From a virus (taxonomy: Duplodnaviria; Heunggongvirae; Uroviricota; Caudoviricetes): a stretch of DNA of 64,000 nucleotides. The stretch lies in the IMG/VR virus record IMGVR_UViG_3300031999_000011; one strand, written 5' to 3'. Positions 19,337 to 61,989 of the stretch are shown one piece after another (within the stretch, counting starts at the first letter, position 1; the number at the start of each line of letters is the position of its first letter). Position numbers and translations under genes: made by a program. Under the pieces are notes generated by a model, which worked only from the letters and a program-made list of their open reading frames with translations, was not told the DNA's origin and made no database searches.

Positions 19337-19353
19337 AACATTAAAAGAATTAT

Positions 19354-19431
19354 GTCCATGTAGCTCAATTGGATTAGAGCATCGGTCTACGAAACCGAAG
19401 GTTATCCGTTCAAATCGGATCATGGATACCA
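19354..19431 (+). tRNA. tRNA-Arg (ACG), encoded CCA
   Basis: Acceptor GTCCATG/CATGGAT; anticodon stem TCGGT/ACCGA with loop CTACGAA; T-arm ATCCG-TTCAAAT-CGGAT; A-CCA. Confidence 0.8.
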
Positions 19432-19472
19432 AATGGTAAAAAAATGATATATAATATATCTTAATGAATAAT

Positions 19473-19548
19473 GCAGGTGTAGCTCAATGGGTAGAGCGCC
19501 GTCCTTCCAAGTCGGATGTTGCAGAATCGTCCTCTGTCACCTGCTCCA
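19473..19548 (+). tRNA. tRNA-Gly (TCC), encoded CCA; atypical T-loop ATCGTCC
   Basis: Acceptor GCAGGTG/CACCTGC; anticodon loop CTTCCAA; one mismatch in the anticodon stem; A54/U58 instead of T54/A58. Confidence 0.65.
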
Positions 19549-19555
19549 ATTTTAT

Positions 19556-19631
19556 GCTTCGTTAGCTCAATGGGTAGAGCACTGCATTGTCACTGCAGAG
19601 GCAGCGGGATCATAGCCCGCACGAGGCGCCA
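19556..19631 (+). tRNA. tRNA-Asp (GTC), encoded CCA; atypical T-loop ATCATAG
   Basis: Acceptor GCTTCGT/ACGAGGC; anticodon stem CTGCA/TGCAG with loop TTGTCAC; T-stem GCGGG/CCCGC; G-CCA. Confidence 0.7.
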
Positions 19632-19663
19632 AATATAATGTAATTATATCAATTAAATGATTT

Positions 19664-19885
19664 ATGAAATTTCACAAACTTGAAGTATACGTTTTCGATT
19701 TTGAAGAAGGTGATAATATTAAAGATATTATCGTTGAAATTGAACAAAATCGACATTTTAATATGGAAGTTAAAGCTCATCAAACAGTTGATATTGGTGA
19801 ATGGGATGATGATCATGAATTAAATCTAACACGCACTTCATTAGAACAGTTTAGAGCGTATTTTGAAAAGAATAATGTCGGGTGA
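19664..19885 (+). CDS. hypothetical protein
   Basis: 73-aa ORF lying between tRNA genes. Confidence 0.4.
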   Translation: MKFHKLEVYVFDFEEGDNIKDIIVEIEQNRHFNMEVKAHQTVDIGEWDDDHELNLTRTSLEQFRAYFEKNNVG

Positions 19886-19922
19886 TACTCATGTGAATCC
19901 GTGAGTCTGGTTATAATTAAAT

Positions 19923-20000
19923 GGGCCTGTATCCCAATTGGTAAGAGGACACCGGCTTAGACCCGGTGTGTTGGAGATTCGAATTCTCTCAGGCCTACCA
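19923..20000 (+). tRNA. tRNA with anticodon TAG (Leu, reads CUA) but class-I short variable loop; encoded CCA
   Basis: Acceptor GGGCCTG/CAGGCCT; 3-bp D-stem; anticodon stem ACCGG/CCGGT with loop CTTAGAC; variable GTGTT; T-arm GGAGA-TTCGAAT-TCTCT; A73-CCA. Confidence 0.6.
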
Positions 20001-22494: not shown

Positions 22495-23112
22495 GTGAGT
22501 AGTTCAAACAAAGATTGGTATTCAATAACTAATACATATTTAGATTGTCGACTCAATAGTATTTTTTTTCGTGTTAAAGAAAAATTTGGTGGATTATCAA
22601 ATATGTCGAACGATTTTCCAATTTGTGTTAATGGGTACAGTATAGCTAATAATGAGGCATTATATCAAGCATGTAGGTTTCCAGATTATCCTGAAATACA
22701 ACGAGAAATTATTATTCAACATAGTGGTATTGCAGCTAAAATGAAAAGCAAAAAATACCGGAAAGAGTTTACAAGAGTAGATTGGGATGATGTTCGAGTT
22801 GATATTATGCGTTTTTGTTTACAACTTAAACTTCAACAGTATGAAAAACCATTTGGTCTACTACTTATGAGTACTACTCAAACAGACATTGTTGAACGAT
22901 CAAGTAAAGATGCATTTTGGGGTGCTGTTTGGGACGATAACGCAGGCGCTTATGTTGGTCAAAACATACTAGGTAAGTTACTTATGGAGTTACGTGATTG
23001 GTTTTTTAATTGCGATATGAGTCTTAATGAACGTGGGTTATTTAGTTATAATTACATTGAACTGTTGAATGTTAACAATTTTTTGTTATTAGGAAATAAT
23101 ATAATTCTATGA
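22495..23112 (+). CDS. NADAR (YbiA-like, DUF1768) domain protein
   Basis: FGGLSNMSNDFPICVNGYSIANNEALYQACRF (LSNF...G..y.s.EH.yQa.KF) and DAFWGAV (D.yWG.G) NADAR signature motifs. Confidence 0.7.
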   Translation: MSSSNKDWYSITNTYLDCRLNSIFFRVKEKFGGLSNMSNDFPICVNGYSIANNEALYQACRFPDYPEIQREIIIQHSGIAAKMKSKKYRKEFTRVDWDDVRVDIMRFCLQLKLQQYEKPFGLLLMSTTQTDIVERSSKDAFWGAVWDDNAGAYVGQNILGKLLMELRDWFFNCDMSLNERGLFSYNYIELLNVNNFLLLGNNIIL

Positions 23113-25103: not shown

Positions 25104-25949
25104 ATGTTTGATTCACCAGTTGTACCAAAATCGTTTTTTATGAATGTTGGAGAGAACTCAGCAAATATTGCATTGAGTTTAACTGTAGCAAAAGAGAAAG
25201 TGATAGTACGTATAACAGGTGGTTGTGGATATATGAGTGTAGAAGATGCTAATGGGTTGTATGATCTATATAGTCAAGCGTTTAGTGGATTTAACGGTGT
25301 GATGTTGTTTGGTGGTACTCGTATGGTTAGCAGGATAGACCGAAATACGGTCATTCCAGGTATAACTGAAGTTGTTCCTCGTATTAAGCATGAAAATCCA
25401 GGTTGTGTTGTTTTAGGAGTTGTTCCAAGAACAGAGGATGTTAAACTGGATACAACTTATGGGTTTATTATTTCAGACGATAATAACCCGTGGATAACTA
25501 TTCCACATCCAGATCAAGATTTTTTTGTAATTGTACAACGTTCAGTAGATCAATCAGCTGATTGGAATGATGAATGGCAAGAATGTTATAATGTAACAAA
25601 ACGATTACGAACCTATTGTGATTGGACTTCATTATTAATTGCATATAATGGCGGTGGAGTTACTGAAAAAGAAATACTTACAATTGCAGCAGCTGGTTGG
25701 CCTGTATTGTTGGTTAATGGTGGAGGTAGGAAAACAGATGAGTATGCTGCAAATGAAGAATTTTTAGCAGCACATCCAAATGTAAGAGTATGTGAAAAAA
25801 ATGTAAGAGATTTTAGAAATACATTGATTGAAATGGGTATACTACTTGGGTTTAGGAAATCTTTAAATCTACAAGTAGTAAATGGTGGTAAAATTAATTT
25901 AAGAGAGTATATTAATTATGAACATAACAGCACAAACAGTAATAAATAA
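25104..25949 (+). CDS. LOG/SLOG-like Rossmann-fold protein (tandem paralog A)
   Basis: RITGGCGYMS (compare LOG GGGxxGxMG) and LLVNGGGRKTDE (compare LOG PGGxGTxxE). Confidence 0.55.
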   Translation: MFDSPVVPKSFFMNVGENSANIALSLTVAKEKVIVRITGGCGYMSVEDANGLYDLYSQAFSGFNGVMLFGGTRMVSRIDRNTVIPGITEVVPRIKHENPGCVVLGVVPRTEDVKLDTTYGFIISDDNNPWITIPHPDQDFFVIVQRSVDQSADWNDEWQECYNVTKRLRTYCDWTSLLIAYNGGGVTEKEILTIAAAGWPVLLVNGGGRKTDEYAANEEFLAAHPNVRVCEKNVRDFRNTLIEMGILLGFRKSLNLQVVNGGKINLREYINYEHNSTNSNK

Positions 25950-26694
25950 GTCGGGTAAAGTTGATTTATTTGTATCAGAAAGCAGTGGAGTTTTACCTGC
26001 TAATTATATGTTAGTGGCAACAAAAGCTAAGTCAAAAGTTGCACTACGTATTGCAGGTGGTTGTAAAAATATGAGTGAGCAAGATAAGTTAGATATGCTT
26101 GATTTTTTTGCTACCGCTTTAATTGGATATTCAGGTGTTCTTTTTTCTGGAGCGACTCGACAATTAACAGCTGATGGTTTACTGGATCCAATGGTGACTG
26201 ATGTTCCTGGTTATGTTGCTCAAAAAAATGATGGTATAATTGCATTAGGTACAGCACCACGCACTGATGCTTGGTCATTACAAGGTGAATCTGCATTTAT
26301 ATTAGATGGATATGGTACAAGACCAAACCCAACAATGGATGCTATTTTATTAGTACAAGATGGTCCTGATGCAACATTAGATTGGGATGGAGATGTACCA
26401 GTTTATTTGAAAATTATGGAATCTTGGAGAAGTTATGCTGGTTTTGAACATGTTGGTTTAATTTCGTGGAACGGTGGCGCAGTCACAGAAGCTGAATTTA
26501 GAGCTACTGCTAACCGTAAATGGCCTACCATATTAATACAAGGTTCTGGTCGTGCTACTGATGATGCTATTCAAGCAATAGTAGGAGAATTACCGGGTGC
26601 GTTACAAGGTGATCATGTATATGTTGTTGATAAGTCTGATCCATTAGCATTACGACAACTTTTAATCGATAATGGTTTTATATTAATTATTTAG
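25918..26694 (+). CDS. LOG/SLOG-like Rossmann-fold protein (tandem paralog B)
   Basis: RIAGGCKNMS and ILIQGSGRATDD; overlaps paralog A by 32 nt; same length and architecture. Confidence 0.55.
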   Translation: MNITAQTVINKSGKVDLFVSESSGVLPANYMLVATKAKSKVALRIAGGCKNMSEQDKLDMLDFFATALIGYSGVLFSGATRQLTADGLLDPMVTDVPGYVAQKNDGIIALGTAPRTDAWSLQGESAFILDGYGTRPNPTMDAILLVQDGPDATLDWDGDVPVYLKIMESWRSYAGFEHVGLISWNGGAVTEAEFRATANRKWPTILIQGSGRATDDAIQAIVGELPGALQGDHVYVVDKSDPLALRQLLIDNGFILII

Positions 26695-32185: not shown

Positions 32186-32512
32186 ATGAAACGTTTAATA
32201 TTAATTGGTATATTGTTATGCAGTATATCAGCATATGCATATGGTCACGGTTACGGAGGTGGTTGGAGTAATAATGGGCAAAATGCTTACAATAATCAAA
32301 ATTGGAGCAATCGTCAATGGAATGCTACTATTCCAGGATATAATGTTCCTTATCGTTATTATGGTTACGGTTATACACCTTACCCTTATTATCCCCAACA
32401 GTATTATGGTTATCCCCAACCGTATTATGGTTATCCACAACCGTATTATGGTTATGGTGGTGCACAATTTGGTATTTCAATACCTGGTTTCAGTTTATTT
32501 TTTGGTAATTAA
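32186..32512 (+). CDS. secreted Gly/Tyr/Pro/Gln-rich repeat protein (paralog 1 of 3)
   Basis: Signal peptide; YYGYPQP repeats; C-terminus GISIPGFSLFFGN. Confidence 0.6.
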   Translation: MKRLILIGILLCSISAYAYGHGYGGGWSNNGQNAYNNQNWSNRQWNATIPGYNVPYRYYGYGYTPYPYYPQQYYGYPQPYYGYPQPYYGYGGAQFGISIPGFSLFFGN

Positions 32513-32538
32513 ATTTATTACCTAATAGGAGTGTTAAA

Positions 32539-32862
32539 ATGTATAAATTAACAATACTAATAATAGTATTATTTTTTAATGTGGTAGTCTATGCAGACGG
32601 TGGGGAACATCATGGTCACGGTGGATATGGTGGGGGTTGGGAAGGACATCATGGTCACGGTGGATATGGTGGGGGTTGGGAAGGACATCGTGGTGGTTGG
32701 GGAGGACATCATGGTGGATATGGACGTCAACTATATTACCCTTATCCTTCATACCCACAATATCCTATAATTCAACAACCTTACTACCCACAACAGTATT
32801 ATGGTTATGGTCAACAATTTGGTATTATAGCACCTGGTGTTAGTATATTTTTTGGTAATTAA
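32539..32862 (+). CDS. secreted Gly/His/Tyr-rich repeat protein (paralog 2 of 3)
   Basis: Signal peptide; [13 protein letters not shown] repeats; C-terminus [13 protein letters not shown]. Confidence 0.6.
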
Positions 32863-32888
32863 TTTATTATGATATTAAGGAATATAAA

Positions 32889-33191
32889 ATGTATAAGTTA
32901 TTATTAATACTGTTATTGTTTAGTGTATTAGTATACGCTGACGACGACGATGACGATGACGATGATAATGGGAGATATCAACAAGGTTATAGTTATTCAA
33001 TACCAACATATGGATATCCACAAGGTTATGGATATCCACAAGGTTATGGATATCCACAAGGTTACGGATATCCACAAGGTTATGGATATCCACAAGGATA
33101 CCGGTATCCACCACACGGTTATAGATATCACCCAAGACAAGGTGGCGTACAAATAATTGTACCAGGATTATATTTAAATTTTGGAGGATAA
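32889..33191 (+). CDS. secreted poly-Asp plus (YPQGYG)n repeat protein (paralog 3 of 3)
   Basis: Signal peptide; D9 tract; six YPQGYG repeats; C-terminus [12 protein letters not shown]. Confidence 0.6.
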
Positions 33192-33193
33192 TA

Positions 33194-33673
33194 ATGAAAT
33201 ATTTAATAATAGTAATGTTGTTGTTAGTTGGTTGCGCAAGTGAAAGTGGTTGGGTTCCAACTGTCGACACATCATATCAACCACAACAACAACAATATCA
33301 ACCACAACAACAATATCAACCACAACCTGGAGCGCCATCAGTGCAGCAAGGTGGATATGTACCGGAAGTACAACAAGGTTATGATCCGAATGCATACAAT
33401 CAGGCAATGGTTGAATGTCAGATGCTTGCTAAACAGGCATCTGGTGGTACATTCAATTCAACTATTACTGATGCTGCAGGTGGTGCTTTATTAGGTGCTG
33501 CAGGTGGAGCAATTGTAGGAGCATTCACAGGAAACCCTGGAACTGGAGCTGCTATTGGTGCTGCTGCAGGTGGTTTTGGGGGAGGTACATATGGTGGATT
33601 AAGTTCCAATGCAACTTATAAAAGTGCATTTTCAAATTGTTTAAGGCAAAGAGGTTATCGAGTACTCAATTAA
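33194..33673 (+). CDS. OsmB/SlyB-like glycine-zipper lipoprotein with Q-rich linker (paralog of 18859..19245)
   Basis: Lipobox LLVGCAS; QPQQQQYQPQQQYQPQ; LLGAAGGAIVGAFTGNPGTGAAIGAAAGGFGGG; conserved C-terminus ...C..RG..V. Confidence 0.65.
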   Translation: MKYLIIVMLLLVGCASESGWVPTVDTSYQPQQQQYQPQQQYQPQPGAPSVQQGGYVPEVQQGYDPNAYNQAMVECQMLAKQASGGTFNSTITDAAGGALLGAAGGAIVGAFTGNPGTGAAIGAAAGGFGGGTYGGLSSNATYKSAFSNCLRQRGYRVLN

Positions 33674-33878
33674 CGCATATATGGAACTATTAAACGATTT
33701 TTTTTGTAGTTATTTGATATAATAAATATACATGAAGTTATACTATTTGTTAGCAAGCATATATTTAAAATATTGCTGTTAATTATACGATAAAGGGGTT
33801 ATAATATGAGAGATGGAAATCAAAATATAGTAGTTATTATTGTTGTTTTATTAGTTCTTGTGGTTCTAGGAGCATTAG

Positions 33879-34322
33879 GTGCCTTACAACCACTTTATTT
33901 ACCATTTTAGGAGCATACAAATGAAGTATTTTTTATTATTATTGTTTATGATTCCGTGTATTAGTATAAATGCGGGATCACAAGCAACAGATGTAAGTAT
34001 TGAGGCTGGTGTTGTCAATAAAGATTTAACGGTAGAGTCAGAGTATCCATCTTCAGCTGATACTTCTACAGAATTATTGGTTGCACCACCTTCAGATGTT
34101 CATGTTATTTGTGATGATAATTGTGTTAACAGTGAACCCAAACAATTAGATAATAAAAGTGTAAAGATTATTCCAGTACAACCTGTAGTTGTACCAATTA
34201 TAGCACCAGTGTTAACTATACAAAAACCTCAAGTTGTAAAACACACTAAAAATAAATCGAAAAAAGTAATGAAAACAAAAGCGAAATTAGTATCAGAAGA
34301 AGGTTGTAAACCGGCAAAATAA
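33879..34322 (+). CDS. secreted protein
   Basis: Signal peptide MKYFLLLLFMIPCISINA (internal ATG at 33921 is the probable start). Confidence 0.5.
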   Translation: MPYNHFIYHFRSIQMKYFLLLLFMIPCISINAGSQATDVSIEAGVVNKDLTVESEYPSSADTSTELLVAPPSDVHVICDDNCVNSEPKQLDNKSVKIIPVQPVVVPIIAPVLTIQKPQVVKHTKNKSKKVMKTKAKLVSEEGCKPAK

Positions 34323-34368
34323 CATTAAGGTTGTGATACGGATATCTTATAATATCATGGAGTGATGA

Positions 34369-34581
34369 ATGCAAGCACATAAAGTAACATGTCGTTTAAA
34401 GAATGGTAATATTAAAAAATATGAAGTTGATGGAGTTGACACTGCGCAAGCGGCAAGAGAATTTGTAATATCACAAGTTAAAAATATACGTACTGTGTTA
34501 GCTTTAGTTAATTCTCCAAGTATACATCCAGAACCATTGGAATTTGAACCAGAAGACCTACCACCTAAACGATATGCATAA
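34369..34581 (+). CDS. hypothetical protein
   Basis: 70-aa ORF; SD GGAGTGA upstream; its stop overlaps the next start (ATGCATAA). Confidence 0.4.
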   Translation: MQAHKVTCRLKNGNIKKYEVDGVDTAQAAREFVISQVKNIRTVLALVNSPSIHPEPLEFEPEDLPPKRYA

Positions 34582-35095
34582 TATTTTAAAGTTAACTTCG
34601 TCTGTGTTATATATGCCAATTGGACCGTCTGGTTGTGGTAAAAGCACATTATATCATAAGTTACGAGGTGTACAACGAGAATTACATAATTTATCAAAGG
34701 ATAGTATACGTTGTTTATTATACGGTGATGATTATGCTAAAGCTTGGATAGCTGCAAATAATGATAAAGATTTTGTAGCTAAAGTAAAAGTTATATATGA
34801 GAAAATGTTAGGTGAAAAAAGCAAAATATATTTAGATAACACTAACTTGTCTCCAAAAATTCGTAGGTATTGGTTGACAGAAGCAAGTAAATACAATTAT
34901 ACAAAAATTGCTATTGTATTTGATGTAGATGTAGATATATTATTATCTCGTCAAGTGACTCGTGAAGATAAAACAGTACCAAAAAGTGCTATTTACCAAC
35001 AAGTAGCAGCGCTTAAACAACCTGTTATTGGTGAGTTCGATGTTGTATATTCAATAATTGATGTAATTAGAGTATTAGAAAATGTTAACACATAA
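34574..35095 (+). CDS. P-loop nucleotide/polynucleotide kinase-like protein (AAA_33/zeta-toxin-like fold)
   Basis: Walker A GPSGCGKST near the N-terminus; DNTN (Walker-B-like). Confidence 0.6.
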   Translation: MHNILKLTSSVLYMPIGPSGCGKSTLYHKLRGVQRELHNLSKDSIRCLLYGDDYAKAWIAANNDKDFVAKVKVIYEKMLGEKSKIYLDNTNLSPKIRRYWLTEASKYNYTKIAIVFDVDVDILLSRQVTREDKTVPKSAIYQQVAALKQPVIGEFDVVYSIIDVIRVLENVNT

Positions 35096-35369
35096 TCTTA
35101 GAACATTTCCCCGTTCTCAACAAACTATTAGTACTATAAAAGATTTAGATGAACTTTTTGATAAGTGGATTGGGATACAAAAAGATGATTATATTGTTAG
35201 TATAGAAGAGATATTCTGTTATGTATCACTTGAATTCGCACAACAATATTATTTAAAACATTTAATGCGTGATAACATTCCTGAGAACAGGGAATATATG
35301 TTTAAACCTATAGAGCATATTCCTGGTATATATAAAGTAACCGCAATGTATATAAAGTGTACAGAATAA
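35082..35369 (+). CDS. hypothetical protein
   Basis: 95-aa ORF. Confidence 0.45.
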
Positions 35370-35719
35370 TTATTATGCTTATAACGAAATTAAAATCTAA
35401 GATACATAGGGTTACGGTAACAGACTCAAATTTGTCATATGAAGGATCTTGTGGAATTTCTATTGATTTATTGCAGCTTGCAAATATACAATCATATGAG
35501 CAAATTCATTTATATAATGTAAATAATGGAGAACGATTTACTACGTATGCAATAGAAGGTGAACCTAATATAATTTCAGTTAGAGGAGCTGCAGCTAGAA
35601 AAGCAGTTGTTGGTGATATATTAATTATATGTACGTATTGTCAAATATCAGAAGATAACGATTATCAACCAATTAATGTTTATGTAGACTCACAAAATAA
35701 TCCAATGTCTAATATATAA
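35357..35719 (+). CDS. panD: aspartate 1-decarboxylase (pyruvoyl-dependent), PanD
   Basis: [33 protein letters not shown]...[12 protein letters not shown]...[16 protein letters not shown] aligns with E. coli PanD (KLHRV.VT.ADL.YEGSC.ID, G-S cleavage site, NG.RF.TYAI). Confidence 0.85.
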
Positions 35720-35738
35720 TTTCAAGAGTACAATTATT

Positions 35739-36095
35739 ATGAATCTAAATATTAAATATGGATCTTCTGTAGCAGCATTAGTACTTACAGATGTTGTATG
35801 TGAACACACAAATAGTAATAAAATCAACCGTAAAGTTGCTCGCACATTAAATCAATTTAATATTCGTGCTAATTACATTGAAACCAGTTGTAACGATGTC
35901 GTTAAAAAACTTGAATCAACAATTGTATTTTATGAATTATTAGTAAAAGATTATATACATCGGTGTGATACAATTTTTCATAATGAAGCGGATATAAAAG
36001 TAAATTCTTTTATTAAAAATGTTATTAAAGCTAGATATAAAGCTTGGTTAGATAAAAACTTAAAAATACACAAACAATATACTAGAAGGAAGTAA
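35739..36095 (+). CDS. hypothetical protein
   Basis: 118-aa ORF. Confidence 0.45.
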   Translation: MNLNIKYGSSVAALVLTDVVCEHTNSNKINRKVARTLNQFNIRANYIETSCNDVVKKLESTIVFYELLVKDYIHRCDTIFHNEADIKVNSFIKNVIKARYKAWLDKNLKIHKQYTRRK

Positions 36096-36104
36096 TGTAA
36101 TTTT

Positions 36105-36467
36105 ATGAGCACCGATATACCGAGTGAAAAAAACATAACAGCATTTAATGGAATTTTTACAGCACGTCTTAATAAAATAATTAAAGATATAAAAAAAGTT
36201 CGACGTGATCCTACAAAAAAAGATAAACTAAAATCGTTGTTGCAGGAGGCTAAACATCTTAAACATAGTATAAAAACTTCTAATAAAAAACAACATTATA
36301 ATATATCAACTACATATGAAATTAATGAAGATGGTATGATATTGTTTGATACTGTTAATTTATTATCTAATAATGGTGTTAAAGTTGTTGATATATTTAC
36401 ATCTGTAAATAATACTTCAGATAATCATAAAACATTTACTATCAATTTTATCATTAAACAACAGTAG
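36105..36467 (+). CDS. hypothetical protein
   Basis: 120-aa ORF. Confidence 0.45.
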   Translation: MSTDIPSEKNITAFNGIFTARLNKIIKDIKKVRRDPTKKDKLKSLLQEAKHLKHSIKTSNKKQHYNISTTYEINEDGMILFDTVNLLSNNGVKVVDIFTSVNNTSDNHKTFTINFIIKQQ

Positions 36468-36583
36468 ATTTTTCTCCTAACTTATACTATACTATATTAT
36501 ACTATAATACATTATATGTATAATATATGTAGTAAATAATAACTAATTATAATAACTAATTTTATTAACCAGATAGGTTTAAT

Positions 36584-36802
36584 ATGCAAATTTTTACAAG
36601 AGATACACTTGACATAATAATAACGAAAATACTTAGTGTGATTTTCACATCGACCAGACGAGTAATATTTATATCGTTAGTGTTAACAGGTACGATGATA
36701 ATGTATTTTGGTTTTTGGACTTATATGGGAATAACAATTGTTGTATGTGCAATATTTATTATACTTATTTGGTGTGATGGTAAATTACACCCGGTTGATT
36801 AA
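36584..36802 (+). CDS. small membrane protein
   Basis: Two TM segments. Confidence 0.4.
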   Translation: MQIFTRDTLDIIITKILSVIFTSTRRVIFISLVLTGTMIMYFGFWTYMGITIVVCAIFIILIWCDGKLHPVD

Positions 36803-36805
36803 TAG

Positions 36806-37408
36806 GTGTTTTTTGTGAGTCGTACACTATATAACTTAGTTTTATTTACATCTGAATCTGGCAATTTAGCTAAGTTTGTGGGTAATCATTTTAAGTCAAA
36901 TAATCCAATCTATATATCTCCAGATGACGATCTTGAAGTGGTATTTCATCATTTGGTGCATCTTTCAATTCGACGTAGATTAATTGGAATCTCTGTTGGT
37001 TATACTAAATTAATACCAAAAAATATTATCGATTTGTTTGAAGGTCAATTATTTAACACTCACCCAGGTGAATTACCGTTAACACGTGGATTATATGGTA
37101 TTACAGCAATTCAAAAAATGATTACTTCGTATAAATCACTAGGAAGAATAACCATTCATCGAGTTGATGAACATTATGATACTGGTAGTGTAATTGCAAC
37201 CATTACATTTCCATATTTAACAGAGTTAGTTGATATGCAACTATTATATGAACTTTCAAATAATAATGATAGTCCCATACCTAAAGATTATTTATATGAA
37301 TGGACAGTAGATTACTCAAGAATGTTAAAATTGATTGAACCAACATTCGTTGTTAAATTTATTGATAATTGCTTTAAAACTAAATTAAAAAGTCATATTA
37401 AAAAATAA
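36806..37408 (+). CDS. formyltransferase (PurN/Fmt N-terminal catalytic domain family)
   Basis: LVLFTSESGNLAKF (compare PurN LISGNGSNLQAI), FNTHPGELPLTRG (N.HPSLLP..RG), ITIHRVDEHYDTGSVIA (GVTIH.VDE.LDTGPII); GTG start. Confidence 0.7.
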   Translation: MFFVSRTLYNLVLFTSESGNLAKFVGNHFKSNNPIYISPDDDLEVVFHHLVHLSIRRRLIGISVGYTKLIPKNIIDLFEGQLFNTHPGELPLTRGLYGITAIQKMITSYKSLGRITIHRVDEHYDTGSVIATITFPYLTELVDMQLLYELSNNNDSPIPKDYLYEWTVDYSRMLKLIEPTFVVKFIDNCFKTKLKSHIKK

Positions 37409-37479
37409 ATTAAATAAAATTTTAGTTGATCAATTGTGCCATTTAGTATAAACTCATATTTTCTTAAAGGAGTTTAAAT

Positions 37480-38547
37480 ATGATAGAAGAACATTATAAA
37501 AGTTATACTGGGATTAGTAGAGATCATAGTGCGTCTATGAAACATCTTACTAAGTATGCTGCAATTGATTACAATAATCAAATTCAAGAAATTAAAGCTA
37601 ATGCAGAGGGTATAGACACTATAGTTAGTGTTGTTAAATGTGGCGTTGGTAGACAGGGTATTGTTGAACGAATTATAACTAATTCAAATGTTAATGTATT
37701 AAAGGAAATTACCACATCTGATTATGATGCTGATGGTTGGTCAACTCCATTATTTGATAGTATTGGTACATTGATCGAATTATTTGAAGCCGCACCTGAT
37801 GCAAATGAGGATACTGTTGCGTTCTTAGTTATGGCTATTACTGATGGTGAAGAAAATAGCTCAGTTAAATGGAAGCATACATTATTTCAAAAAATCCAAC
37901 AATTACAAGCGACTGATAAATGGACTTTTGTATTTCGTGTACCTAAAGGTTATGCGAAATCATTAACAAAATTTGGTATACATCCAGGTAATATTCTCGA
38001 ATGGGATCAAACAGAAGCAGGTTTTGTAAAAGCAACACAAGAAACAAGTACTGCACTAAGTGGGTACTATAATAATTTAAGATCCGGGGTTAGATCAACT
38101 GACCGGTTCTTTACTAATATTGCTGATGTTAGTCCTGATGAAATCAAAAAGAAATTACATGATATCACAAATCAAGTTAGTTTTTGGGTCGTAAGTGATT
38201 CAGAAGCGGGTGTTCAAATTCGTGATTTTTGTGAGTCACACTTACACGGTCAAAAAATGTTAAAAGGGGCTGGGTTTTATCAATTAGTAAAACCAGAAAA
38301 AGATATTCAAGACTACAAACAAATTATCATTCGTGATAAGTCATCCGGGTTAGTTTATACTGGCGATGCAGTTCGTGATATGTTAGGTTTACCAAATTAC
38401 GGACATATTAAAGTATCACCGGGCGATCATGGTCAATGGGATATATACATACAATCGACATCTGTAAATCGTAAGTTACCAGCTGAGACTTCTGTGTTAT
38501 ATTATGCAAATATAGGGAAACCATATCATGAAGGTAAGTCCGCTTAA
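37480..38547 (+). CDS. von Willebrand factor type A (vWA) domain protein
   Basis: MIDAS-like DHSAS (DxSxS) near the N-terminus; ITDGEEN (TDGxxN); Rossmann-like alternating pattern. Confidence 0.65.
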   Translation: MIEEHYKSYTGISRDHSASMKHLTKYAAIDYNNQIQEIKANAEGIDTIVSVVKCGVGRQGIVERIITNSNVNVLKEITTSDYDADGWSTPLFDSIGTLIELFEAAPDANEDTVAFLVMAITDGEENSSVKWKHTLFQKIQQLQATDKWTFVFRVPKGYAKSLTKFGIHPGNILEWDQTEAGFVKATQETSTALSGYYNNLRSGVRSTDRFFTNIADVSPDEIKKKLHDITNQVSFWVVSDSEAGVQIRDFCESHLHGQKMLKGAGFYQLVKPEKDIQDYKQIIIRDKSSGLVYTGDAVRDMLGLPNYGHIKVSPGDHGQWDIYIQSTSVNRKLPAETSVLYYANIGKPYHEGKSA

Positions 38548-38755
38548 TTTAAAAAAATCAACGGATGTAAACAAGATGAGAGTCTATATAAGACTAGCGT
38601 TCTCATCATTATTAATTTTATTAGATATAGGATGGTTATTACCTATCTTAATATCTAGTAAATCTGGATGTTTAGTTATGTTAGGTTTTGTTTTAGTAAT
38701 TTTAACAATTCCATTTGCATATTATGCATATCGGTGGAGTGTTAAAACAGATTAA
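38528..38755 (+). CDS. small two-TM membrane protein
   Basis: Hydrophobic LLILLDIGWLLPILI and VMLGFVLVILTIPFAYYAY (alternative start ATG 38575). Confidence 0.4.
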   Translation: MKVSPLNLKKSTDVNKMRVYIRLAFSSLLILLDIGWLLPILISSKSGCLVMLGFVLVILTIPFAYYAYRWSVKTD

Positions 38756-38810
38756 TGGTAATTTAATTATGTATTAAAATAATTAAAATAAAAATAAGGA
38801 TAGTTTAAAT

Positions 38811-41081: not shown

Positions 41082-41459
41082 TTGAATTATAATTTTATTT
41101 ATTTAAATTATATTTTTATGCAAAACATAAATGAAATAGATATAATAACTCAACTCGATGTATTCATATTAAGTAACATTCGCACCGCATGGTTAGAGAA
41201 CAAATACATGAAAGTGTATGTTCGAAAAGCGTTTCATAATATTGATGGAGTATGTGAGTGCACATTTGACGTTGCTAATGTGACTGTGTTTACCAAATAT
41301 CAAAAACGTGGTCATTTTAAAAATTTAATGCAACATGTTGAAACGTTAGGACGAAGTATATATGTTGAAAGCATAAATAATCCTGATTTAAAAAGTATGT
41401 TAATTAAAAACGGTTATACTATAGATTATACAGGATATAATGCATACAAGAAAGTTTAA
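41082..41459 (+). CDS. hypothetical protein
   Basis: 125-aa ORF. Confidence 0.45.
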   Translation: MNYNFIYLNYIFMQNINEIDIITQLDVFILSNIRTAWLENKYMKVYVRKAFHNIDGVCECTFDVANVTVFTKYQKRGHFKNLMQHVETLGRSIYVESINNPDLKSMLIKNGYTIDYTGYNAYKKV

Positions 41460-44710: not shown

Positions 44711-45445
44711 ATGAAAAAACCTATTTTATATCTTGAAGCATTAACTACTAATAAACAACGATTAGCTTTTGATTTTTGTTATTCTGCAAAAATGGGTGCT
44801 GAACAATGTGGTATTAAAGTAAAAGCGTTTCAAAATATTTCAGATGTATCAAATGATCCTACTAATATTGTAGTTGGTTCTGTTGAAACATGTTCACTTT
44901 GGCTTCAAAATGCAGGATTTCAAATACCAAATGCTGTTGATATATCATTATTTCAAGAGTTTTTAGGTAGAAATATTACTGTTATTGATATTCAAGATGT
45001 TAAATTTCCTTCTTTTATTAAACCGTATTCCAAAATTAAAGCGTTTACTGGATTTGTAGCTATTGATAAATTATACGTTAGTATATTTTCAGAAAACTAC
45101 AAAGGGTTAGTTTGGTCACAAGATGTAGTTGAAATTATAAGTGAATATCGGTTGTATATTAATTGTCATAAAATTATTGGAATGAAGCATTGTCGTGGTG
45201 ATTGTTTATCATTTCCTGATGTTAATTTTATTAAAATATGTGTTAATAAATCAATAAAGATACTTGATTATCATGCATATACATTAGATTTTGGTGTACT
45301 TGAAGATGGTAGTACTATATTAATTGAAATTAATGATGGGTTTGCAATTGGTAATTATGGGTTAGAACCTCTTGATTATTATTACTTTATTCGAAATAGG
45401 TGGCTTCAACTAACAGGTATACGCCATCGAATGGAAGGTTTGTAG
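44711..45445 (+). CDS. possible ATP-grasp-fold protein
   Basis: FIKP...K.FTGFV, EYRLYI, ILIEINDGFAIGNYGL arrangement typical of ATP-grasp central and C-terminal subdomains; weak. Confidence 0.45.
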   Translation: MKKPILYLEALTTNKQRLAFDFCYSAKMGAEQCGIKVKAFQNISDVSNDPTNIVVGSVETCSLWLQNAGFQIPNAVDISLFQEFLGRNITVIDIQDVKFPSFIKPYSKIKAFTGFVAIDKLYVSIFSENYKGLVWSQDVVEIISEYRLYINCHKIIGMKHCRGDCLSFPDVNFIKICVNKSIKILDYHAYTLDFGVLEDGSTILIEINDGFAIGNYGLEPLDYYYFIRNRWLQLTGIRHRMEGL

Positions 45446-52090: not shown

Positions 52091-52504
52091 ATGAAAAAAA
52101 TGATAATAGTTATGAGAACTGATCTTAATATGAGATGTGGAAAGCAAATTATCCAAGGTGCGCACTGTGCAGTTAATGTTATTTTACAACAAGGTGAGAT
52201 TTTATCACATAACAATGAAATGGGTATTTTTATACCATTAACAGCCGATTTAACTGAATGGTTAAATGGTGATACGTTTGAGTTATTTAATGGTAAGTAT
52301 ACCAAAATAACTGTCGGAGTAAATTCAGAAGATGAAATAATTGATCTTTGTAGACAAGCTGATTTTGCAAGTATTAATTATAAAATTACAACAGATTTAG
52401 GACTTACTGAATTTCACGGTATTCCGACTATTACAAGTTGTGCAATAGGTCCTGCCGATGTAGATGAAATTGATAAAATAACTGGTCATTTAAAATTATT
52501 ATAA
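52091..52504 (+). CDS. peptidyl-tRNA hydrolase, PTH2 family
   Basis: KMIIVMRTDLNMRCGKQIIQGAHCAVNV matches the PTH2 signature KMVLVVRTDL.MGKGKIAAQC.HA. Confidence 0.8.
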   Translation: MKKMIIVMRTDLNMRCGKQIIQGAHCAVNVILQQGEILSHNNEMGIFIPLTADLTEWLNGDTFELFNGKYTKITVGVNSEDEIIDLCRQADFASINYKITTDLGLTEFHGIPTITSCAIGPADVDEIDKITGHLKLL

Positions 52505-59260: not shown

Positions 59261-60037
59261 ATGCTAATTACACATGAAGTACCGTTTAGTTTGTTAGAAA
59301 TGTCTAGAGAATTCAATGATATAGATTATGTTCTCGTGCATTTACTGGAAGATTACCCAAATTACTACAAGTTTTTTGAAAAATCATTAGCAATGGGGCG
59401 TACAGTAATTTTAGACAACAGTATTTTTGAGCTCGAAGAGGTCTTTGATGCTGACAGGTTTGCGTATTGGGTTGAAAGATTAAAACCAACTGAATATATT
59501 ATTCCAGATGTACTTGATAATAGTACAGCGACTATTGAGTCATGTATGAATTGGATAACTGAGTATAGTCATTTACCTGGTAAGACAATTGGTGTTATTC
59601 AAGGTGCAACCGTTGAAGATGCGATTGAATGTTATTCAACAATATCTTTGTTAGTTGATAAAGTTGCGATTAGTTTTAATTGTAAATTTTATGAGTACTT
59701 ATATCCCCATACAAATAAATTATTTTCATGGATGCACGGTAGGCAAATGTTTATTGATTTATTAATAGATGAAGGTATAATTAACATATCACAACCGTTT
59801 CATTTATTAGGAATAGCTCTTCCTCAGGAAATACAACATTATAAGAGTGGATATGATTTTATTGAAAGTATTGATACCAGCAACCCAATAGTGCACGCAA
59901 TCAATAATATTTCATATAAATCATATGGGTTAGATAGTAAAGTAAGTGAAAAAATGATAAATTATTTGCATTATACTGAAATTGATCACAATATTTTAAA
60001 TCATAATATAAAAAAATTTAGGAGCTTTATAAAATGA
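59261..60037 (+). CDS. hypothetical protein; candidate DpdA/TGT-like transglycosylase
   Basis: RTVILDNSIFEL resembles the TGT catalytic-Asp motif ILTDSGGFQV; IDTSNPIVH resembles the second catalytic-Asp motif FDCVLPTR; inference from motifs and neighbourhood only. Confidence 0.5.
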   Translation: MLITHEVPFSLLEMSREFNDIDYVLVHLLEDYPNYYKFFEKSLAMGRTVILDNSIFELEEVFDADRFAYWVERLKPTEYIIPDVLDNSTATIESCMNWITEYSHLPGKTIGVIQGATVEDAIECYSTISLLVDKVAISFNCKFYEYLYPHTNKLFSWMHGRQMFIDLLIDEGIINISQPFHLLGIALPQEIQHYKSGYDFIESIDTSNPIVHAINNISYKSYGLDSKVSEKMINYLHYTEIDHNILNHNIKKFRSFIK

Positions 60038-60561
60038 AATGGCTAGCACTATTTAGTCAAACCGGTAGTGAACTTAAAAATATTATTGAGCAGACTGGAC
60101 GTAAACCTAATATGGTTTTAACAAACAGATTAGGTTCATCTGAAATTGATGGAGTGGTACCGATAACATATACTCCTAAAACACCTACTTCAATTGTATA
60201 CAATTTTTATTTTAATCATTATGATATTATCACATTACATGGTTATTTGAGAATAATATCACCTGATGCTTGTGATCATTTAATTTATAATGGACATCCT
60301 GCTGCTATTCATTTATATCCTGAATTGAAAGGTAAAGATAAACAAGAAGATGCATTTATTTACAAAGACAAATATCCAAGAATGGGAGTTGTTATTCATC
60401 GAGTAACACCTGAATTGGATGCTGGTGAAATTATAATGTGTCATGATGTAATTAATGATACAACAAGTATTGAAGATGCATATCAAAAATTAGCTAATTT
60501 ATCTGTTAGGCAATGGGTTATATTCGTAAAGAATAGACCAAATATGGGAGAACTCGTATGA
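60034..60561 (+). CDS. PurN-type (GAR-transformylase family) formyltransferase
   Basis: LALFSQTGSELKNIIE (VVLISGNGSNLQAIID), GYLRIISP...NGHPAAIHLYPELKG (GFMRILSP...NIHPSLLPKYPG; catalytic N and H conserved), IHRVTPELDAGEII (VHFVTDELDGGPVI; catalytic D conserved). Confidence 0.85.
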   Translation: MKWLALFSQTGSELKNIIEQTGRKPNMVLTNRLGSSEIDGVVPITYTPKTPTSIVYNFYFNHYDIITLHGYLRIISPDACDHLIYNGHPAAIHLYPELKGKDKQEDAFIYKDKYPRMGVVIHRVTPELDAGEIIMCHDVINDTTSIEDAYQKLANLSVRQWVIFVKNRPNMGELV

Positions 60562-61085
60562 AACTGGCACTTTGTGGGGTACACGGATCCGGAAAAACAA
60601 CATTATTAAATACGATACAAGAATTGAATCTGTTACCCGGTTATTATTATTCTACTAATTTAACTCGTAGATTAAGGGATCAGGGATATCTTATTAGTGA
60701 TAAGGGTGATGATGCGACACAAAATGCAATAATGAGTGTTCATAGAGCTAATATGGCATATACTGATATAATTATGGATAGATCTGCTTTAGATTGCTAT
60801 GTATATACTGAATACTTATATCGACAGGATAAGGTAAGTGGACTAACTAGTCAAAAGCTTTTTTCGCAAGCGATGGATTGTGTTAACAGGTATAATATTA
60901 TGTTTTACATTAAGCCAGAATTTGAATTAGAAGATGATGGTGTGCGACCTATTGATCAAAAATTTCAAAATGATATTGTGGAAACTTTTGATCGTATAAT
61001 AACTTTGTGTAGGTTACGAGTTACGTTATTGACAGGAACCGTTGATCAAAGAATTGAACAATTTAAACAAACATTAGGGATATAA
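60558..61085 (+). CDS. P-loop NTPase / (d)NMP-kinase-like protein
   Basis: MKLALCGVHGSGKTTLL Walker A at the extreme N-terminus, like phage dNMP kinases; start overlaps the upstream stop. Confidence 0.6.
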   Translation: MKLALCGVHGSGKTTLLNTIQELNLLPGYYYSTNLTRRLRDQGYLISDKGDDATQNAIMSVHRANMAYTDIIMDRSALDCYVYTEYLYRQDKVSGLTSQKLFSQAMDCVNRYNIMFYIKPEFELEDDGVRPIDQKFQNDIVETFDRIITLCRLRVTLLTGTVDQRIEQFKQTLGI

Positions 61086-61086: not shown

Positions 61087-61989
61087 ATGTCAGATATTAA
61101 TAAACATTTAGGGCAAGTTTCGCAATATAGTTCAACATATTCACCAGATATTTTAGTACGTGAGAGTCGGTTGTTGAATCGGGAGGCACACTATGTAGAT
61201 TCAGATTCGTTTGTTGGTTATGATGTGTGGAATTTATATGAAGTTTCAGCATTAACTGATAATGGACTACCAGTTGTAGGGTTCGGTAAACTAATATACT
61301 CTGCTTCTAGTAAGTATATTGTTGAATCAAAATCTTTGAAATTGTACTTTTTTAGTTACAATATGGAGAAACTGTGGAGAAATACTGATGATGTTATTGA
61401 TACGATGGAACGACAAGTAGTTATTGATTTGTCATCATTACTTGAAACACCTGTTCAATTTAAGTTCTTTCACGCAAATGATAATCATATACCATATGCT
61501 CCATTTCAACTAACAGAAGATAGCAAAATACCATGTAAATTTAAAAATATTGATAATATTGATGGTGTTGAAGATATTAAATTTGTCGATTTTAAAGAAA
61601 ATAAAGATTTGTTAAAAGTTGAATATAATGATAAATTATGTTATAATGCTATAACATCTTGTTTTTTAAGATCGAATTGTCGCATAACTCATCAACCAGA
61701 TTGGGGGGACATTTATGTTTATTATAGAGGTGATTATCAATTAGATGAATTATCTTTTATTAAGTACATTGTTAGTTTTAGAAATGAATTCCACTTTCAT
61801 GAAGAGGTTTGTGAAATGATATATGCTGTATTATATAACATACTACAACCTAAAGAATTACTCGTAGGTTGTTTGTATACTCGGCGAGGGGGTTTAGATA
61901 TAAATCCTATACGAGCAACTCATACTTTTTTATTAGATTCTGGATTAATTGATATTAACACTGTTGTACAAAAAACAACAAGACAATAA
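61087..61989 (+). CDS. queF: NADPH-dependent 7-cyano-7-deazaguanine (preQ0) reductase, bimodular YqcD-type QueF
   Basis: Colinear with E. coli QueF: GYDVWNLYEVS, VESKSLKLYFFSY (E(S/L)K(S/A)LK(L/Y)(Y/F) QueF motif), SNCRITHQPDWGDIYVYYRG (catalytic Cys in NC.ITHQPDW), YIVSFRNEFHFHEEVCE, YTRRGGLDINP. Confidence 0.9.
   Translation: MSDINKHLGQVSQYSSTYSPDILVRESRLLNREAHYVDSDSFVGYDVWNLYEVSALTDNGLPVVGFGKLIYSASSKYIVESKSLKLYFFSYNMEKLWRNTDDVIDTMERQVVIDLSSLLETPVQFKFFHANDNHIPYAPFQLTEDSKIPCKFKNIDNIDGVEDIKFVDFKENKDLLKVEYNDKLCYNAITSCFLRSNCRITHQPDWGDIYVYYRGDYQLDELSFIKYIVSFRNEFHFHEEVCEMIYAVLYNILQPKELLVGCLYTRRGGLDINPIRATHTFLLDSGLIDINTVVQKTTRQ

Follow-up and report, generated by a model that had tools for sequence, protein, structure and literature searches.

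The gene clusters for thymidine hypermodification in phages M6, ViI, SP10 and PhiW-14 combine a DNA kinase acting on 5-hmdU (5-HMUDK), a dUMP hydroxymethylase and a DNA-glycosylase-like transferase (aGPT-Pplase), with or without PLP-dependent and radical SAM enzymes. The kinase co-associates with dUMP hydroxymethyltransferase, and the only genes common to all such phages are those for 5-HMUDK and the glycosylase-like protein (PMC5889632). The accessory enzyme classes described for these pathways are PLP-dependent and radical SAM enzymes; the main text of the same paper never uses the word decarboxylase and leaves the pyruvoyl enzyme PanD unmentioned (PMC5889632). Guanine is the modified base in the DNA of Flavobacterium phage immuto_2-6A, where it is replaced by formyl-preQ1; the formyltransferase YP_010114479.1 has been named DpdN (PMC10516641). 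In the zymogen of PanD, the aspartate 1-decarboxylase, Asn72 hydrogen-bonds the pyruvoyl-forming Ser25 (PMC3975893).

Here we describe a 64-kb stretch of phage DNA (the window) in which a P-loop kinase, a PanD and a formyltransferase (FT1) are encoded close together. We consider it probable that these are three functionally independent host-like genes without a shared pathway, namely PanD as an auxiliary metabolic gene for coenzyme A, a Pnk-type kinase and a lineage-restricted FT1, and that DNA modification is the task of a separate 7-deazaguanine cassette. All three open reading frames (ORFs) were confirmed on the plus strand, where they span 2.8 kb; their presence and the distances between them agree with a preliminary description of this DNA. 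The kinase ORF (34544-35095, first ATG at 34574) encodes 173 aa and has no phosphatase domain. It is followed after roughly 270 bp by the PanD ORF (35357-35719; 114 aa from the ATG at 35375, the start chosen by metagenome gene callers). The interval is occupied by a 95-aa ORF (35082..35369) that overlaps the kinase stop and ends 5 nt ahead of the PanD ATG, and a homolog of this ORF lies directly 5' of PanD in the related contigs L054 and L055. The spacing of 1.09 kb between PanD and FT1 (36806 or 36815 to 37408; 200 or 197 aa) contains three further small ORFs, of 118 aa (35739..36095), 120 aa (36105..36467) and 72 aa (36584..36802; hydrophobic and, from its translation, probably a membrane protein), all on the plus strand and all kept in L054/L055, and a 117-nt AT-rich intergenic gap lies directly 3' of the 120-aa ORF. 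No Pfam or PHROG family matched the 95-, 118- or 72-aa ORF, and no such match was significant for the 120-aa ORF. An identical PanD protein and the same gene order recur in several samples, on 14 metagenome contigs in all, which shows that the region is not an assembly artifact. The GC content is about 30% throughout, nearly all genes lie on one strand and the neighborhood is phage-typical; the source is an uncultured jumbo phage of roughly 30% GC, and the region is part of its accessory arm. Conflict-related islands typically hold genes for SIR2, NADAR, SLOG and RNA repair, and all of these occur in the window.

The preliminary description had called PanD genuine, and the profile scores agree. 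The protein matches Pfam Asp_decarbox (PF02261) with an E-value of 7e-38 over profile positions 1-113 of 115, and its score of 114.6 bits passes the curated cut-off of 106 of the equivalog model TIGR00223 (panD) in NCBIfam. It belongs to the same length class as the bacterial enzymes (E. coli 1PPY/1AW8; TIGR00223, PF02261) and aligns with the E. coli enzyme (1ppy) from end to end. The self-cleavage site Gly24-Ser25 is kept within the motif YEGSC (residues 22-26), which aligns with YEGSC of E. coli, and the motif KIHRVTVT is present as well, both as claimed earlier. Residues K9, H11, Y22, R54, T57 and Y58 are kept in the window protein and are identical in all of the best 120 homologs, including the aspartate-binding residues R54, K9 and T57. 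Unlike bacterial PanD, the window version is phage-encoded, carries Arg in place of Asn72 (N72R), lacks two residues ahead of position 72 and ends in a short C-terminus. Position 72 is Asn in 102 of the best 120 homologs, Arg in 15, and Lys, Met and Tyr in one each. Comparison with relatives gave a dN/dS ratio of 0.12-0.15 with dS saturated, corresponding to purifying selection. Thus, judging by its sequence, ORF 35375-35719 encodes a full-length, active-looking aspartate 1-decarboxylase of the self-processing pyruvoyl type. Arginine in place of the Ser25-bonding asparagine would tune autocatalytic maturation rather than change the substrate, although the proximity of the substitution to the pyruvoyl-forming Ser25 (PMC3975893) means that altered chemistry may be possible. 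A small ORF at 41082 was considered as a PanZ/PanM-like activator and rejected, as it showed no such similarity, and no activator of this kind was found.

Among the best 120 PanD matches, Arg72 occurs mostly in the closest relatives, and the clade that they form includes one Lys and one Met variant. Among the fetched loci, Arg or Met at this position is restricted to phage-like contigs of 29-36% GC (L001-L007, L009-L011, L054/55 and L057). These contigs have further window genes in common, including a CCA enzyme (39-48% identity), a Gly-zipper lipoprotein, an ARD cupin and DUF3307, suggesting vertical inheritance of the R72 PanD clade, whose members lie on contigs of low-GC jumbo phages wherever the context is readable. 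In total, 34 viral contigs of IMG/VR carry PanD, and the gene contexts in which it occurs there include at least five that are unrelated to one another; there is no PHROG family for it. The only convincing PanD among 50,697 deposited phage records is gp87 of Gordonia phage Jace, annotated as aspartate decarboxylase, which shows that cultured phages are able to carry the gene; this protein from a 54-kb actinophage is 42% identical to the window PanD and falls outside the R72 clade. Most of the GenBank "phage" matches to PanD look like host contamination, and the window PanD is 58-61% identical to proteobacterial PanDs. Both observations would fit recently captured host DNA (morons) without a phage role, or a contig that is itself host contamination. 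We regard this explanation as very unlikely, because the gene order recurs on the 14 contigs, the low GC content, single-strand coding and phage-typical surroundings extend throughout the region, PanD is conserved in diverged phage relatives with a dN/dS of about 0.1-0.15, and all known members of the FT1 family come from phage-like contigs of this kind.

A possible metabolic role of PanD is indicated by its neighbors in two related phages. In L011 (a 164-kb contig) and L057 (53 kb), a gene located 0.9-1.7 kb upstream of that for PanD encodes a protein of 334-336 aa. The C-terminal half of this protein is similar to 34 solved phosphopantetheine adenylyltransferases (E-values down to 4e-10), and the N-terminal half to the dephospho-CoA kinase 2grj (E 0.004) as well as, at a weak level, to Pfam CoaE, which identifies the protein as a predicted CoaE-CoaD (DPCK-PPAT) fusion. 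The presence of this fusion near the same PanD clade favors the view of PanD as an auxiliary metabolic gene, although the neighbor is limited to the two related contigs and may reflect a single evolutionary event. In the phage studied here, PanD is a lone step, as neither the window ORFs of at least 100 aa nor the gene calls up to about 10 kb away on each side include a further gene for pantothenate or CoA. Its product would feed the host PanC and CoaA-E steps, so that pantothenate and CoA would be raised or maintained during infection. Most likely, PanD is an auxiliary metabolic gene that acts through beta-alanine and boosts the host coenzyme A supply. The preliminary description had offered this role only as an alternative, and it is now the best-supported reading.

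The same biochemistry could serve a different end. By analogy with the phage pathways that reconstitute NAD+, PanD, together with CoaE-CoaD in the relatives, might act in counter-defense or stress repair by rebuilding CoA or beta-alanine that the host has destroyed or withheld. The surroundings are compatible with such a role, since PanD in the relatives lies less than 5 kb from NAMPT and among RNA-repair genes (2H-SAK, HAD_SAK_2), and the SIR2, NADAR, SLOG and RNA-repair genes of the window point the same way. However, a shared accessory arm is weak evidence, and the proposal differs from CoA provision only in the selective reason. To our knowledge, no defense system that depletes CoA or beta-alanine is known, and we consider counter-defense unlikely beside the CoA supply role that we prefer.

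The kinase (34574-35095) matches Pfam AAA_33 (5e-16), phrog_505 "polynucleotide kinase" (3e-19) and the kinase part of the bacterial Pnkp model of NCBIfam (3.6e-14), and its tblastn matches in phages are genes annotated as pseT or polynucleotide kinase. Among solved structures it comes closest to the kinase domain of T4 Pnk (1ly1/1ltq) and to the kinase of C. thermocellum Pnkp, at a low identity of 26-32%. In the alignment with 1ly1/1ltq, the segments GCGKST, KDSIR and SRQVTRED fall on GSGKST, RDDYR and KRNSKRGT, and the P-loop and the equivalents of D35, R38, R122 and R126 are conserved; Asp35, Arg38 and Arg126 are essential residues of T4 Pnk. In contrast to T4 Pnk/PseT, the window protein lacks a HAD phosphatase domain; in the relatives HAD_SAK_2 is encoded by a gene of its own after FT1, which is not the case in the window. 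We therefore assign the protein as a putative stand-alone polynucleotide 5'-kinase of the T4 Pnk type. The window also contains a CCA-adding enzyme, Thg1, PTH2 and tRNAs, with an RNA ligase and TROVE just downstream, and the kinase would serve this RNA/tRNA-repair set of the phage.

This assignment bears directly on the pathway put forward in the preliminary description, in which kinase, PanD and formyltransferase together hypermodify thymidine. In such a pathway, the kinase would activate 5-hmdU, and an amino acid joined to the base would then be decarboxylated and formylated. All three enzyme classes, P-loop kinase, decarboxylase and group transferase, are indeed encoded on one strand inside 2.8 kb, and the phage clearly devotes genes at another place to DNA modification (see below). 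The resemblance to the M6, ViI, SP10 and PhiW-14 clusters is nevertheless confined to the level of enzyme classes, a P-loop kinase near a group transferase, and the window kinase is of a different family, showing no similarity to the 5-HMUDK of phage M6 and aligning with T4 Pnk at the catalytic residues. When the M6 proteins gp51-gp58 were compared with the 64-kb window by tblastn, nothing was found below an E-value of 0.3, and the window has no detectable homolog of the M6 aGPT-Pplase, dUMP hydroxymethylase, PLP-dependent enzyme or radical SAM protein. No ORF scanned contained a thymidylate-synthase-family domain, and neither of the two homologs that the preliminary description had proposed to look for, dUMP hydroxymethylase and thymidylate synthase, was found within the 64 kb. 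Its inclusion of decarboxylases among the enzymes typical of these pathways has no counterpart in the main text of the discovery paper, where the accessory classes are PLP-dependent and radical SAM enzymes (PMC5889632), and PanD itself keeps R54, K9 and T57 and passes its equivalog cut-off. As the three genes are moreover not conserved together in relatives, we consider a role of the trio in thymidine hypermodification extremely improbable.

FT1 (36815-37408) matched Pfam Formyl_trans_N with an E-value of 3.8e-10 in the core only (residues 62-136 against profile positions 84-155), and the scores remain far below the equivalog cut-offs of both PurN (TIGR00639; 33.6 vs 150.1 bits) and Fmt (TIGR00460; 34 vs 201.5 bits). 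The residues N81, H83 and D122, which align with the PurN triad motifs (Asn106-His108-Asp144), are invariant in the seven-member FT1 family. An AF2 model of moderate confidence (pLDDT 74.7) gave PurN structures 4s1n and 3av3 as best Foldseek matches (E 4e-8, TM about 0.5). Like PurN (4S1N, 3AV3, 1CDE), FT1 consists of one domain, is about 200 aa long and has this fold by prediction as well as an Asn-x-His...Asp triad, and its N-terminal loop S-x-S-G-N-L resembles the PurN phosphate loop; unlike PurN, it has no purine-pathway context, and the sequences align in the core only. The earlier designation as PurN/Fmt-type is therefore right for the fold and the triad and wrong as a statement of orthology to either enzyme. 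PurN orthology was rejected because of the score below the cut-off and the unmatched full-length domain, only residues 62-138 being aligned, and Fmt because of its score and because the 197-aa model ends in a single long helix, with no second domain that could be the C-terminal tRNA-binding domain of Fmt. DpdN was rejected likewise, FT1 showing 28% identity over 68 residues to YP_010114479.1 (E 8e-4) and no DpdA or QueF neighbors. Only seven FT1 homologs exist among 5.8e9 proteins, all on phage-like contigs, and the next relatives appear at E~1e-15 among 1.84e9 cluster representatives. FT1 is thus a lineage-restricted enzyme of the PurN fold with an intact Asn-His-Asp triad, putatively a folate-dependent formyltransferase or a formyl-THF hydrolase.

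The trio is not conserved as a unit: at the PanD locus of the closest relative, L054 (55-69% identical), there is no kinase gene, and in the more distant L006, L009, L011 and L057 no FT1 lies within 10 kb of PanD. In L054, the relative position of PanD and FT1 is kept with the same small ORFs between them, and PanD also lies near a formyltransferase in a second, unrelated phage group (adjacent in L017, 8 kb away in L020-25). Given these arrangements, beta-alanine and formyl transfer might be functionally linked. PanD might then provide beta-alanine, or decarboxylate an aspartyl adduct, for a phage-specific product, with N72R marking a changed substrate or partner; a candidate product is an N-formyl-beta-alanyl group placed on a protein, nucleotide or nucleic acid by FT1 or the R2K ATP-grasp ligase of the window. 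The R72 signature beside the active-site Ser25, the orphan character of FT1 with its intact triad, and the direct adjacency in L017 could all be accommodated. However, synteny in a close relative is expected from descent alone, four other R72/M72-clade loci have no FT1 around PanD, and the 117-nt AT-rich gap parts the PanD block from the 72-aa ORF and FT1. In addition, L017 encodes its formyltransferase, a full-length protein of the PurN type (Formyl_trans_N, 7e-37), beside a PRPP synthetase, which fits nucleotide metabolism. We know of no described beta-alanyl modification of nucleic acids, and consider a phage-specific product of this kind quite unlikely compared with the independent roles proposed above. 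The R2K ATP-grasp ligase gene is located at 44711-45445.

DNA hypermodification, as anticipated in the preliminary description, probably does occur in this phage, with other genes and with guanine rather than thymine as the base. The formyltransferase at 60034, which had been taken for another copy of FT1, shares with it only 28% identity over 69 residues. This ORF (FT2; 60034..60561) encodes a homolog of DpdN, the preQ1/dPreQ1 formyltransferase, and aligns with YP_010114479.1 over 94% of its length at 38% identity. It is preceded by a DNA guanine transglycosylase gene (59261..60037), assigned to the DpdA3 subfamily following PMC10516641, whose product shares 46% identity over 256 aa with the immuto_2-6A DpdA (E 5e-71) and 42-43% with proteins from CP220-like phages of Campylobacter. 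Downstream lie an AAA_28 P-loop kinase (60558..61085; Pfam AAA_28, 2e-10; 30% identity to the "thymidylate kinase" that immuto has at this place) and a bimodular QueF, the preQ0 to preQ1 reductase (61087..61989; Pfam QueF_N and QueF; TIGR03138, 4e-67; 43% identity to immuto QueF). All four genes are on the plus strand, and the order DpdA3-DpdN-kinase-QueF is collinear with that of immuto_2-6A. In immuto and most IMG/VR loci, FolE, QueD and QueE adjoin the cassette, whereas the preQ0 genes FolE, QueD, QueE and QueC were not found in the window or in the 10 kb on each side. The cassette at 59261-61989 predicts that the phage DNA carries a 7-deazaguanine of the formyl-preQ1 type. This gene order also predominates among 80 viral DpdN loci from IMG/VR, where DpdA3 is present in 68 of the 71 with upstream room, QueF in 69 of the 71 with downstream room, and a homolog of the AAA_28 kinase in 63 of the 80. 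None of these 80 loci contains the kinase, PanD or FT1 of the accessory region or any FT1 homolog, and in the window itself the cassette lies 22 kb from the region that encodes the three genes.

Judged from sequence, this locus adds a putative viral clade of aspartate 1-decarboxylase (PanD) with an Arg72 signature and an apparently orphan PurN-fold formyltransferase (FT1), as well as a predicted stand-alone Pnk kinase and a further candidate DpdA3-DpdN cassette. Points that deserve follow-up are the link of PanD to CoaE-CoaD, the Arg72 variant, the FT1 acceptor and the conserved kinase of the formyl-preQ1 cassette. The kinase, PanD and formyltransferase ORFs that the preliminary description had singled out are real and spaced as it stated, the gaps being filled by small ORFs of 95 aa and then 118, 120 and 72 aa (orf95, orf118, orf120 and orf72). 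PanD (35375-35719, plus strand, ATG at 35375, 114 aa) covers the whole PF02261 profile (7e-38), scores 114.6 bits against a cut-off of 106 for the NCBI panD equivalog and aligns end to end with E. coli PanD, and is thus a genuine member of the family, as had been proposed. When the 120 best database hits and E. coli PanD were aligned, K9, H11, Y22, S25, C26, R54, T57 and Y58 were invariant; the window protein keeps all of these as well as G24, and the sole departure among the inspected residues is the replacement of Asn72 by Arg. In the E. coli zymogen, Asn72 hydrogen-bonds the hydroxyl of Ser25, the future pyruvoyl group (PMC3975893).

Arg occupies position 72 in 15 of the 120 best PanD hits, mostly the nearest relatives, and the clade also includes one Lys and one Met. 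Among the loci fetched, Arg or Met at this position occurs only in phage-like contigs of 29-36% GC, and Asn72 is kept in all 33 other viral PanD loci. The Arg/Met72 contigs share further genes with the window, namely the CCA enzyme (39-48% identity), a Gly-zipper lipoprotein, an ARD cupin and DUF3307, so that the clade seems to have been passed down vertically in a single group of large phages. Pairwise dN/dS values of 0.12-0.15, rough because dS is saturated, indicate purifying selection on PanD. Among cultured phages the gene is rare: gp87 of Gordonia phage Jace was the sole convincing case among 15 tblastn hits in 50,697 records. No PHROG family covers PanD, and our literature search gave no dedicated study of phage-encoded PanD. 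Metagenomic viral contigs carry it recurrently, with 34 IMG/VR loci that represent five or more distinct gene contexts. The Arg72 variant offers a natural experiment on the control of PanD self-processing, which is still under discussion for the PanZ-dependent E. coli enzyme. The ORF at 41082-41459 was considered as a PanZ/PanM-like GNAT activator and rejected, as it matches neither PanZ, GNAT nor any Pfam family.

As an alternative to a role in DNA modification, the preliminary description had suggested that PanD is an auxiliary metabolic gene boosting CoA synthesis. This is the best reading, and we consider it reasonably probable given the gene neighbourhoods of relatives. Among the window ORFs of at least 100 aa and the gene calls about 10 kb to each side, PanD was the only pantothenate or CoA gene found. 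In a 164-kb IMG/VR contig (L011) with an Arg72 PanD 61% identical to that of the window, panD is preceded, about 0.9 kb upstream, by an ORF of 336 aa. All the solved proteins matched by the C-terminal half of its product, 34 in number, are phosphopantetheine adenylyltransferases (E to 4e-10); the N-terminal half has a match to dephospho-CoA kinase 2grj (E 0.004) and a weak one to Pfam CoaE. Together, the two half-matches mark the protein as a CoaE-CoaD fusion, which would take in the final two steps in the synthesis of CoA. A copy with 67% identity precedes an Arg72 PanD by 1.7 kb in a second contig, L057 (L011:8088-9095; L057:8630-9637). Only three such fusion proteins were found in a collection of 5.8 billion proteins, and the window has no homologue. 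This neighbour, known from two related contigs only, supports a tie between the viral PanD clade and CoA synthesis and points to a small phage-borne CoA module. If PanD is active, the supply of beta-alanine and CoA would join the host bottlenecks that are relieved by large phages.

Judged by gene neighbourhoods, the kinase, PanD and FT1 are not one unit, since the kinase is variable, FT1 is missing within 10 kb of PanD in four loci (L006, L009, L011 and L057), and an AT-rich gap of 117 nt separates the kinase-orf95-PanD-orf118-orf120 block from orf72-FT1. A functional link between PanD and FT1 alone would accord with the conservation of their arrangement, including the same small ORFs between them, in L054, the closest relative with readable DNA, and with an unrelated phage group in which PanD adjoins or lies near a formyltransferase; however, the latter enzyme is of the full-length PurN type and stands beside a PRPP synthetase, indicating nucleotide metabolism, and we regard the link as improbable. 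It is very unlikely that the Arg72 PanD, FT1 and the four small conserved ORFs interspersed with them would modify a nucleic acid, nucleotide or protein in a previously undescribed way, with a derivative of beta-alanine that may be N-formylated, on top of the predicted formyl-preQ1. A milder version is that jumbo phages would carry a dedicated booster of CoA biosynthesis composed of PanD and the CoaE-CoaD fusion, a class of auxiliary metabolism for which we know of no experimental study so far.

FT1 (36815-37408, plus strand, 197 aa) matches only the catalytic core of Formyl_trans_N (3.8e-10). Its Asn-x-His and Asp-x-Gly motifs align on the PurN triad, and N81, H83 and D122 are invariant across the family. 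For the AlphaFold model, which is moderately confident (pLDDT 74.7), Foldseek ranked PurN structures highest (E 4e-8, TM about 0.5), with ArnA and sugar N-formyltransferases next. FT1 is probably an active folate-dependent enzyme. The PurN/Fmt-type label given to it previously does not hold, as the protein falls far below the PurN and Fmt equivalog cut-offs and lacks the Fmt-type C-terminal domain; nor is it a second copy of ORF 60034, the two being just 28% identical over 69 residues. The family is tiny, with seven homologues of 50-62% identity among 5.8 billion proteins, and a profile search of 1.84 billion cluster representatives returned two true members, then a gap, then ordinary PurN-like proteins at E~1e-15. 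The dN/dS of FT1 against L054 is 0.35. In both P0124 contigs (L056:953-1480 and a 9.9-kb ENA contig), a 175-aa HAD_SAK_2 gene directly follows FT1 with a 4-nt overlap, suggesting that FT1 may act on or with a phosphorylated substrate; in L054 the gene at this position (10572-11177) encodes 201 aa and has no recorded Pfam hit, and the window has no HAD_SAK_2 gene after FT1.

The kinase (ATG at 34574, end at 35095, plus strand, 173 aa; AAA_33, 5e-16) has the T4 polynucleotide kinase domain and the C. thermocellum Pnkp kinase as its best solved relatives. Its P-loop, KDSIR and SRQVTRED segments align on the T4 P-loop, D35/R38 and R122/R126, respectively; bacterial Pnkp is its best NCBIfam model, and its phage hits are annotated as pseT or polynucleotide kinase. 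The protein consists of the kinase domain alone, whereas relatives carry a separate HAD_SAK_2 phosphatase gene after FT1. In L054, where PanD and FT1 are 69% and 55% identical to those of the window, none of the genes called across the locus has an AAA_33 hit, and the place of the kinase upstream of the orf95 homologue is taken by two small ORFs that match no family. The window also encodes a CCA-adding enzyme (3209-4387), eight tRNAs (13036-20000), PTH2 (52091-52504), an AAA_33/zeta-like kinase on the minus strand (56397-57158) and a Thg1-like enzyme (57260-57985), and a TROVE (Ro-like) protein and an RNA ligase lie just downstream of it (L046:5452-8493). The Pnk-type kinase probably belongs to this RNA-repair and translation tool kit, a company that fits a role in RNA repair.

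The preliminary description had proposed that the kinase, PanD and formyltransferase carry out thymidine hypermodification. Phages with this pathway are marked by a 5-hmdU DNA kinase, which is co-associated with a dUMP hydroxymethylase, and by a DNA-glycosylase-like transferase; accessory classes are the PLP and radical SAM enzymes (PMC5889632). Proteins of phage M6 were used as queries against the 64-kb window, which is part of a larger genome. None of its hypermodification proteins, including dUMP hydroxymethylase, for which a search had been advised, gave a window hit below E 0.3, and the kinase at 34574 was not hit at all. With the M6 set lacking window homologues and the trio not a unit, the proposal is not sustained; a polynucleotide kinase fitting RNA repair was also the outcome that the description itself had set against it. 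The labels 'PurN' and 'thymidine hypermodification' are therefore inapplicable here, which halts the spread of a wrong annotation, and the DNA-modification claim shifts to the right genes, those of a DpdA3-DpdN-kinase-QueF cassette.

This cassette occupies 59261-61989, where the neighbours of the DpdN homologue (60034-60561) follow the same order as in Flavobacterium phage immuto_2-6A. It comprises a DpdA3-type transglycosylase (59261-60037; 46% identity to the immuto protein and 42-43% to CP220-like Campylobacter phages), a P-loop kinase of the AAA_28 family located between DpdN and QueF (60558-61085; 30% identity to its immuto counterpart) and a bimodular QueF (61087-61989; 43% identity). 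Cui et al. named the immuto_2-6A protein matched by ORF 60034 DpdN and proposed it as a preQ1/dPreQ1 formyltransferase; in the DNA of that phage canonical dG is absent and only 7-(formylamino)methyl-7-deazaguanine is found (PMC10516641). Given this collinearity, we predict that the present phage replaces guanine with a formyl-preQ1-type base. Among the 80 IMG/VR loci fetched by DpdN alignment (344 relatives in all), DpdA3 was present in 68 of the 71 that extend far enough upstream, QueF in 69 of the 71 that extend far enough downstream, and the P-loop kinase in 63 of 80, the dominant order being FolE-DpdA-DpdN-kinase-QueF; PanD, FT1 and the Pnk-type kinase were absent from all 80. The cassette kinase goes unmentioned in the main text of the paper defining DpdN (PMC10516641); as its role, a dNMP-kinase-like step would accord with complete (100%) replacement of G. 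PDB sequence searches with the DpdA3 homologue and the AAA_28 kinase returned no informative hit. Immuto queries for FolE, QueD and QueE found none in the window, nor do the flanking gene calls (10 kb per side) include any; these genes must be located elsewhere in the genome unless the host supplies preQ0.

Domain scans identify the window, which has a GC content of about 30% throughout and nearly all genes on the plus strand, as an accessory arm typical of jumbo phages. It encodes SIR2 (1408-2121), NADAR (22495-23112), two adjacent SLOG-domain proteins (25104-26694), the ARD cupin and CCA-adding enzyme, an SPFH protein, an R2K ATP-grasp, a fatty-acid hydroxylase, a sigma-70 factor, PTH2, the Thg1-like enzyme and a staphylococcal-type nuclease, and directly past its end lie TROVE, RNA ligase, dUTPase_2, TelA, a TerF-like vWA protein and a PRPP synthetase. 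NAMPT is found near PanD in relatives; with SIR2, NADAR and SLOG, this suggests that the phages interact with conflict systems based on NAD+ and ADP-ribose. Fourteen contigs (up to 120 kb) from several metagenomes carry the same sequence, its genes in identical order, and a megablast search with 34000-38000 produced zero matches in 50,697 phage records, indicating that no cultured close relative exists there. The eight tRNAs were the only Rfam matches in the window, which has no preQ1 riboswitch by this search, and when 33600-38800 was scanned for sigma-70 promoters and terminators, the sites did not outnumber those in shuffles. Scattered tblastn matches of a 355-aa neighbour (phrog_26613) in phages of Caulobacter, Mycobacterium, Streptomyces and Synechococcus allow no host call. 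No Shine-Dalgarno sequence is recognisable before the start codons of PanD or FT1 (35340-35380 and 36795-36820), which, with the likeness of DpdA3 and DpdN to Flavobacterium phages, is a weak hint of a Bacteroidota-like host; PanD, by contrast, most closely resembles proteobacterial enzymes.

The stretch 32186-33673 encodes three small proteins that are tandem paralogues. They have signal peptides and repeats rich in Gly, Tyr, Pro and Gln (GYGGGW, YPQGYG); all three share a ...PG(F/V/L)S(L/I)FFGN-like tail, and the Gly-zipper lipoprotein follows them. L054 does not have this block. Among other PanD-bearing viruses, the group of L017 (1-13954) and L020-L025 links PanD with FtsH, dimeric dUTPase, ClpP, lipase, PRPP synthetase, a beta-eliminating lyase, a full-length PurN-type formyltransferase and an acetolactate-synthase-like TPP enzyme, a region that looks like a dense island of metabolic genes. 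Finally, in 11 loci drawn from L006, L007, L009, L010 and the IMG/VR loci L027-L036, which represent two or more viral groups, PanD has a small heat-shock gene (HSP20) no more than a few kb away.
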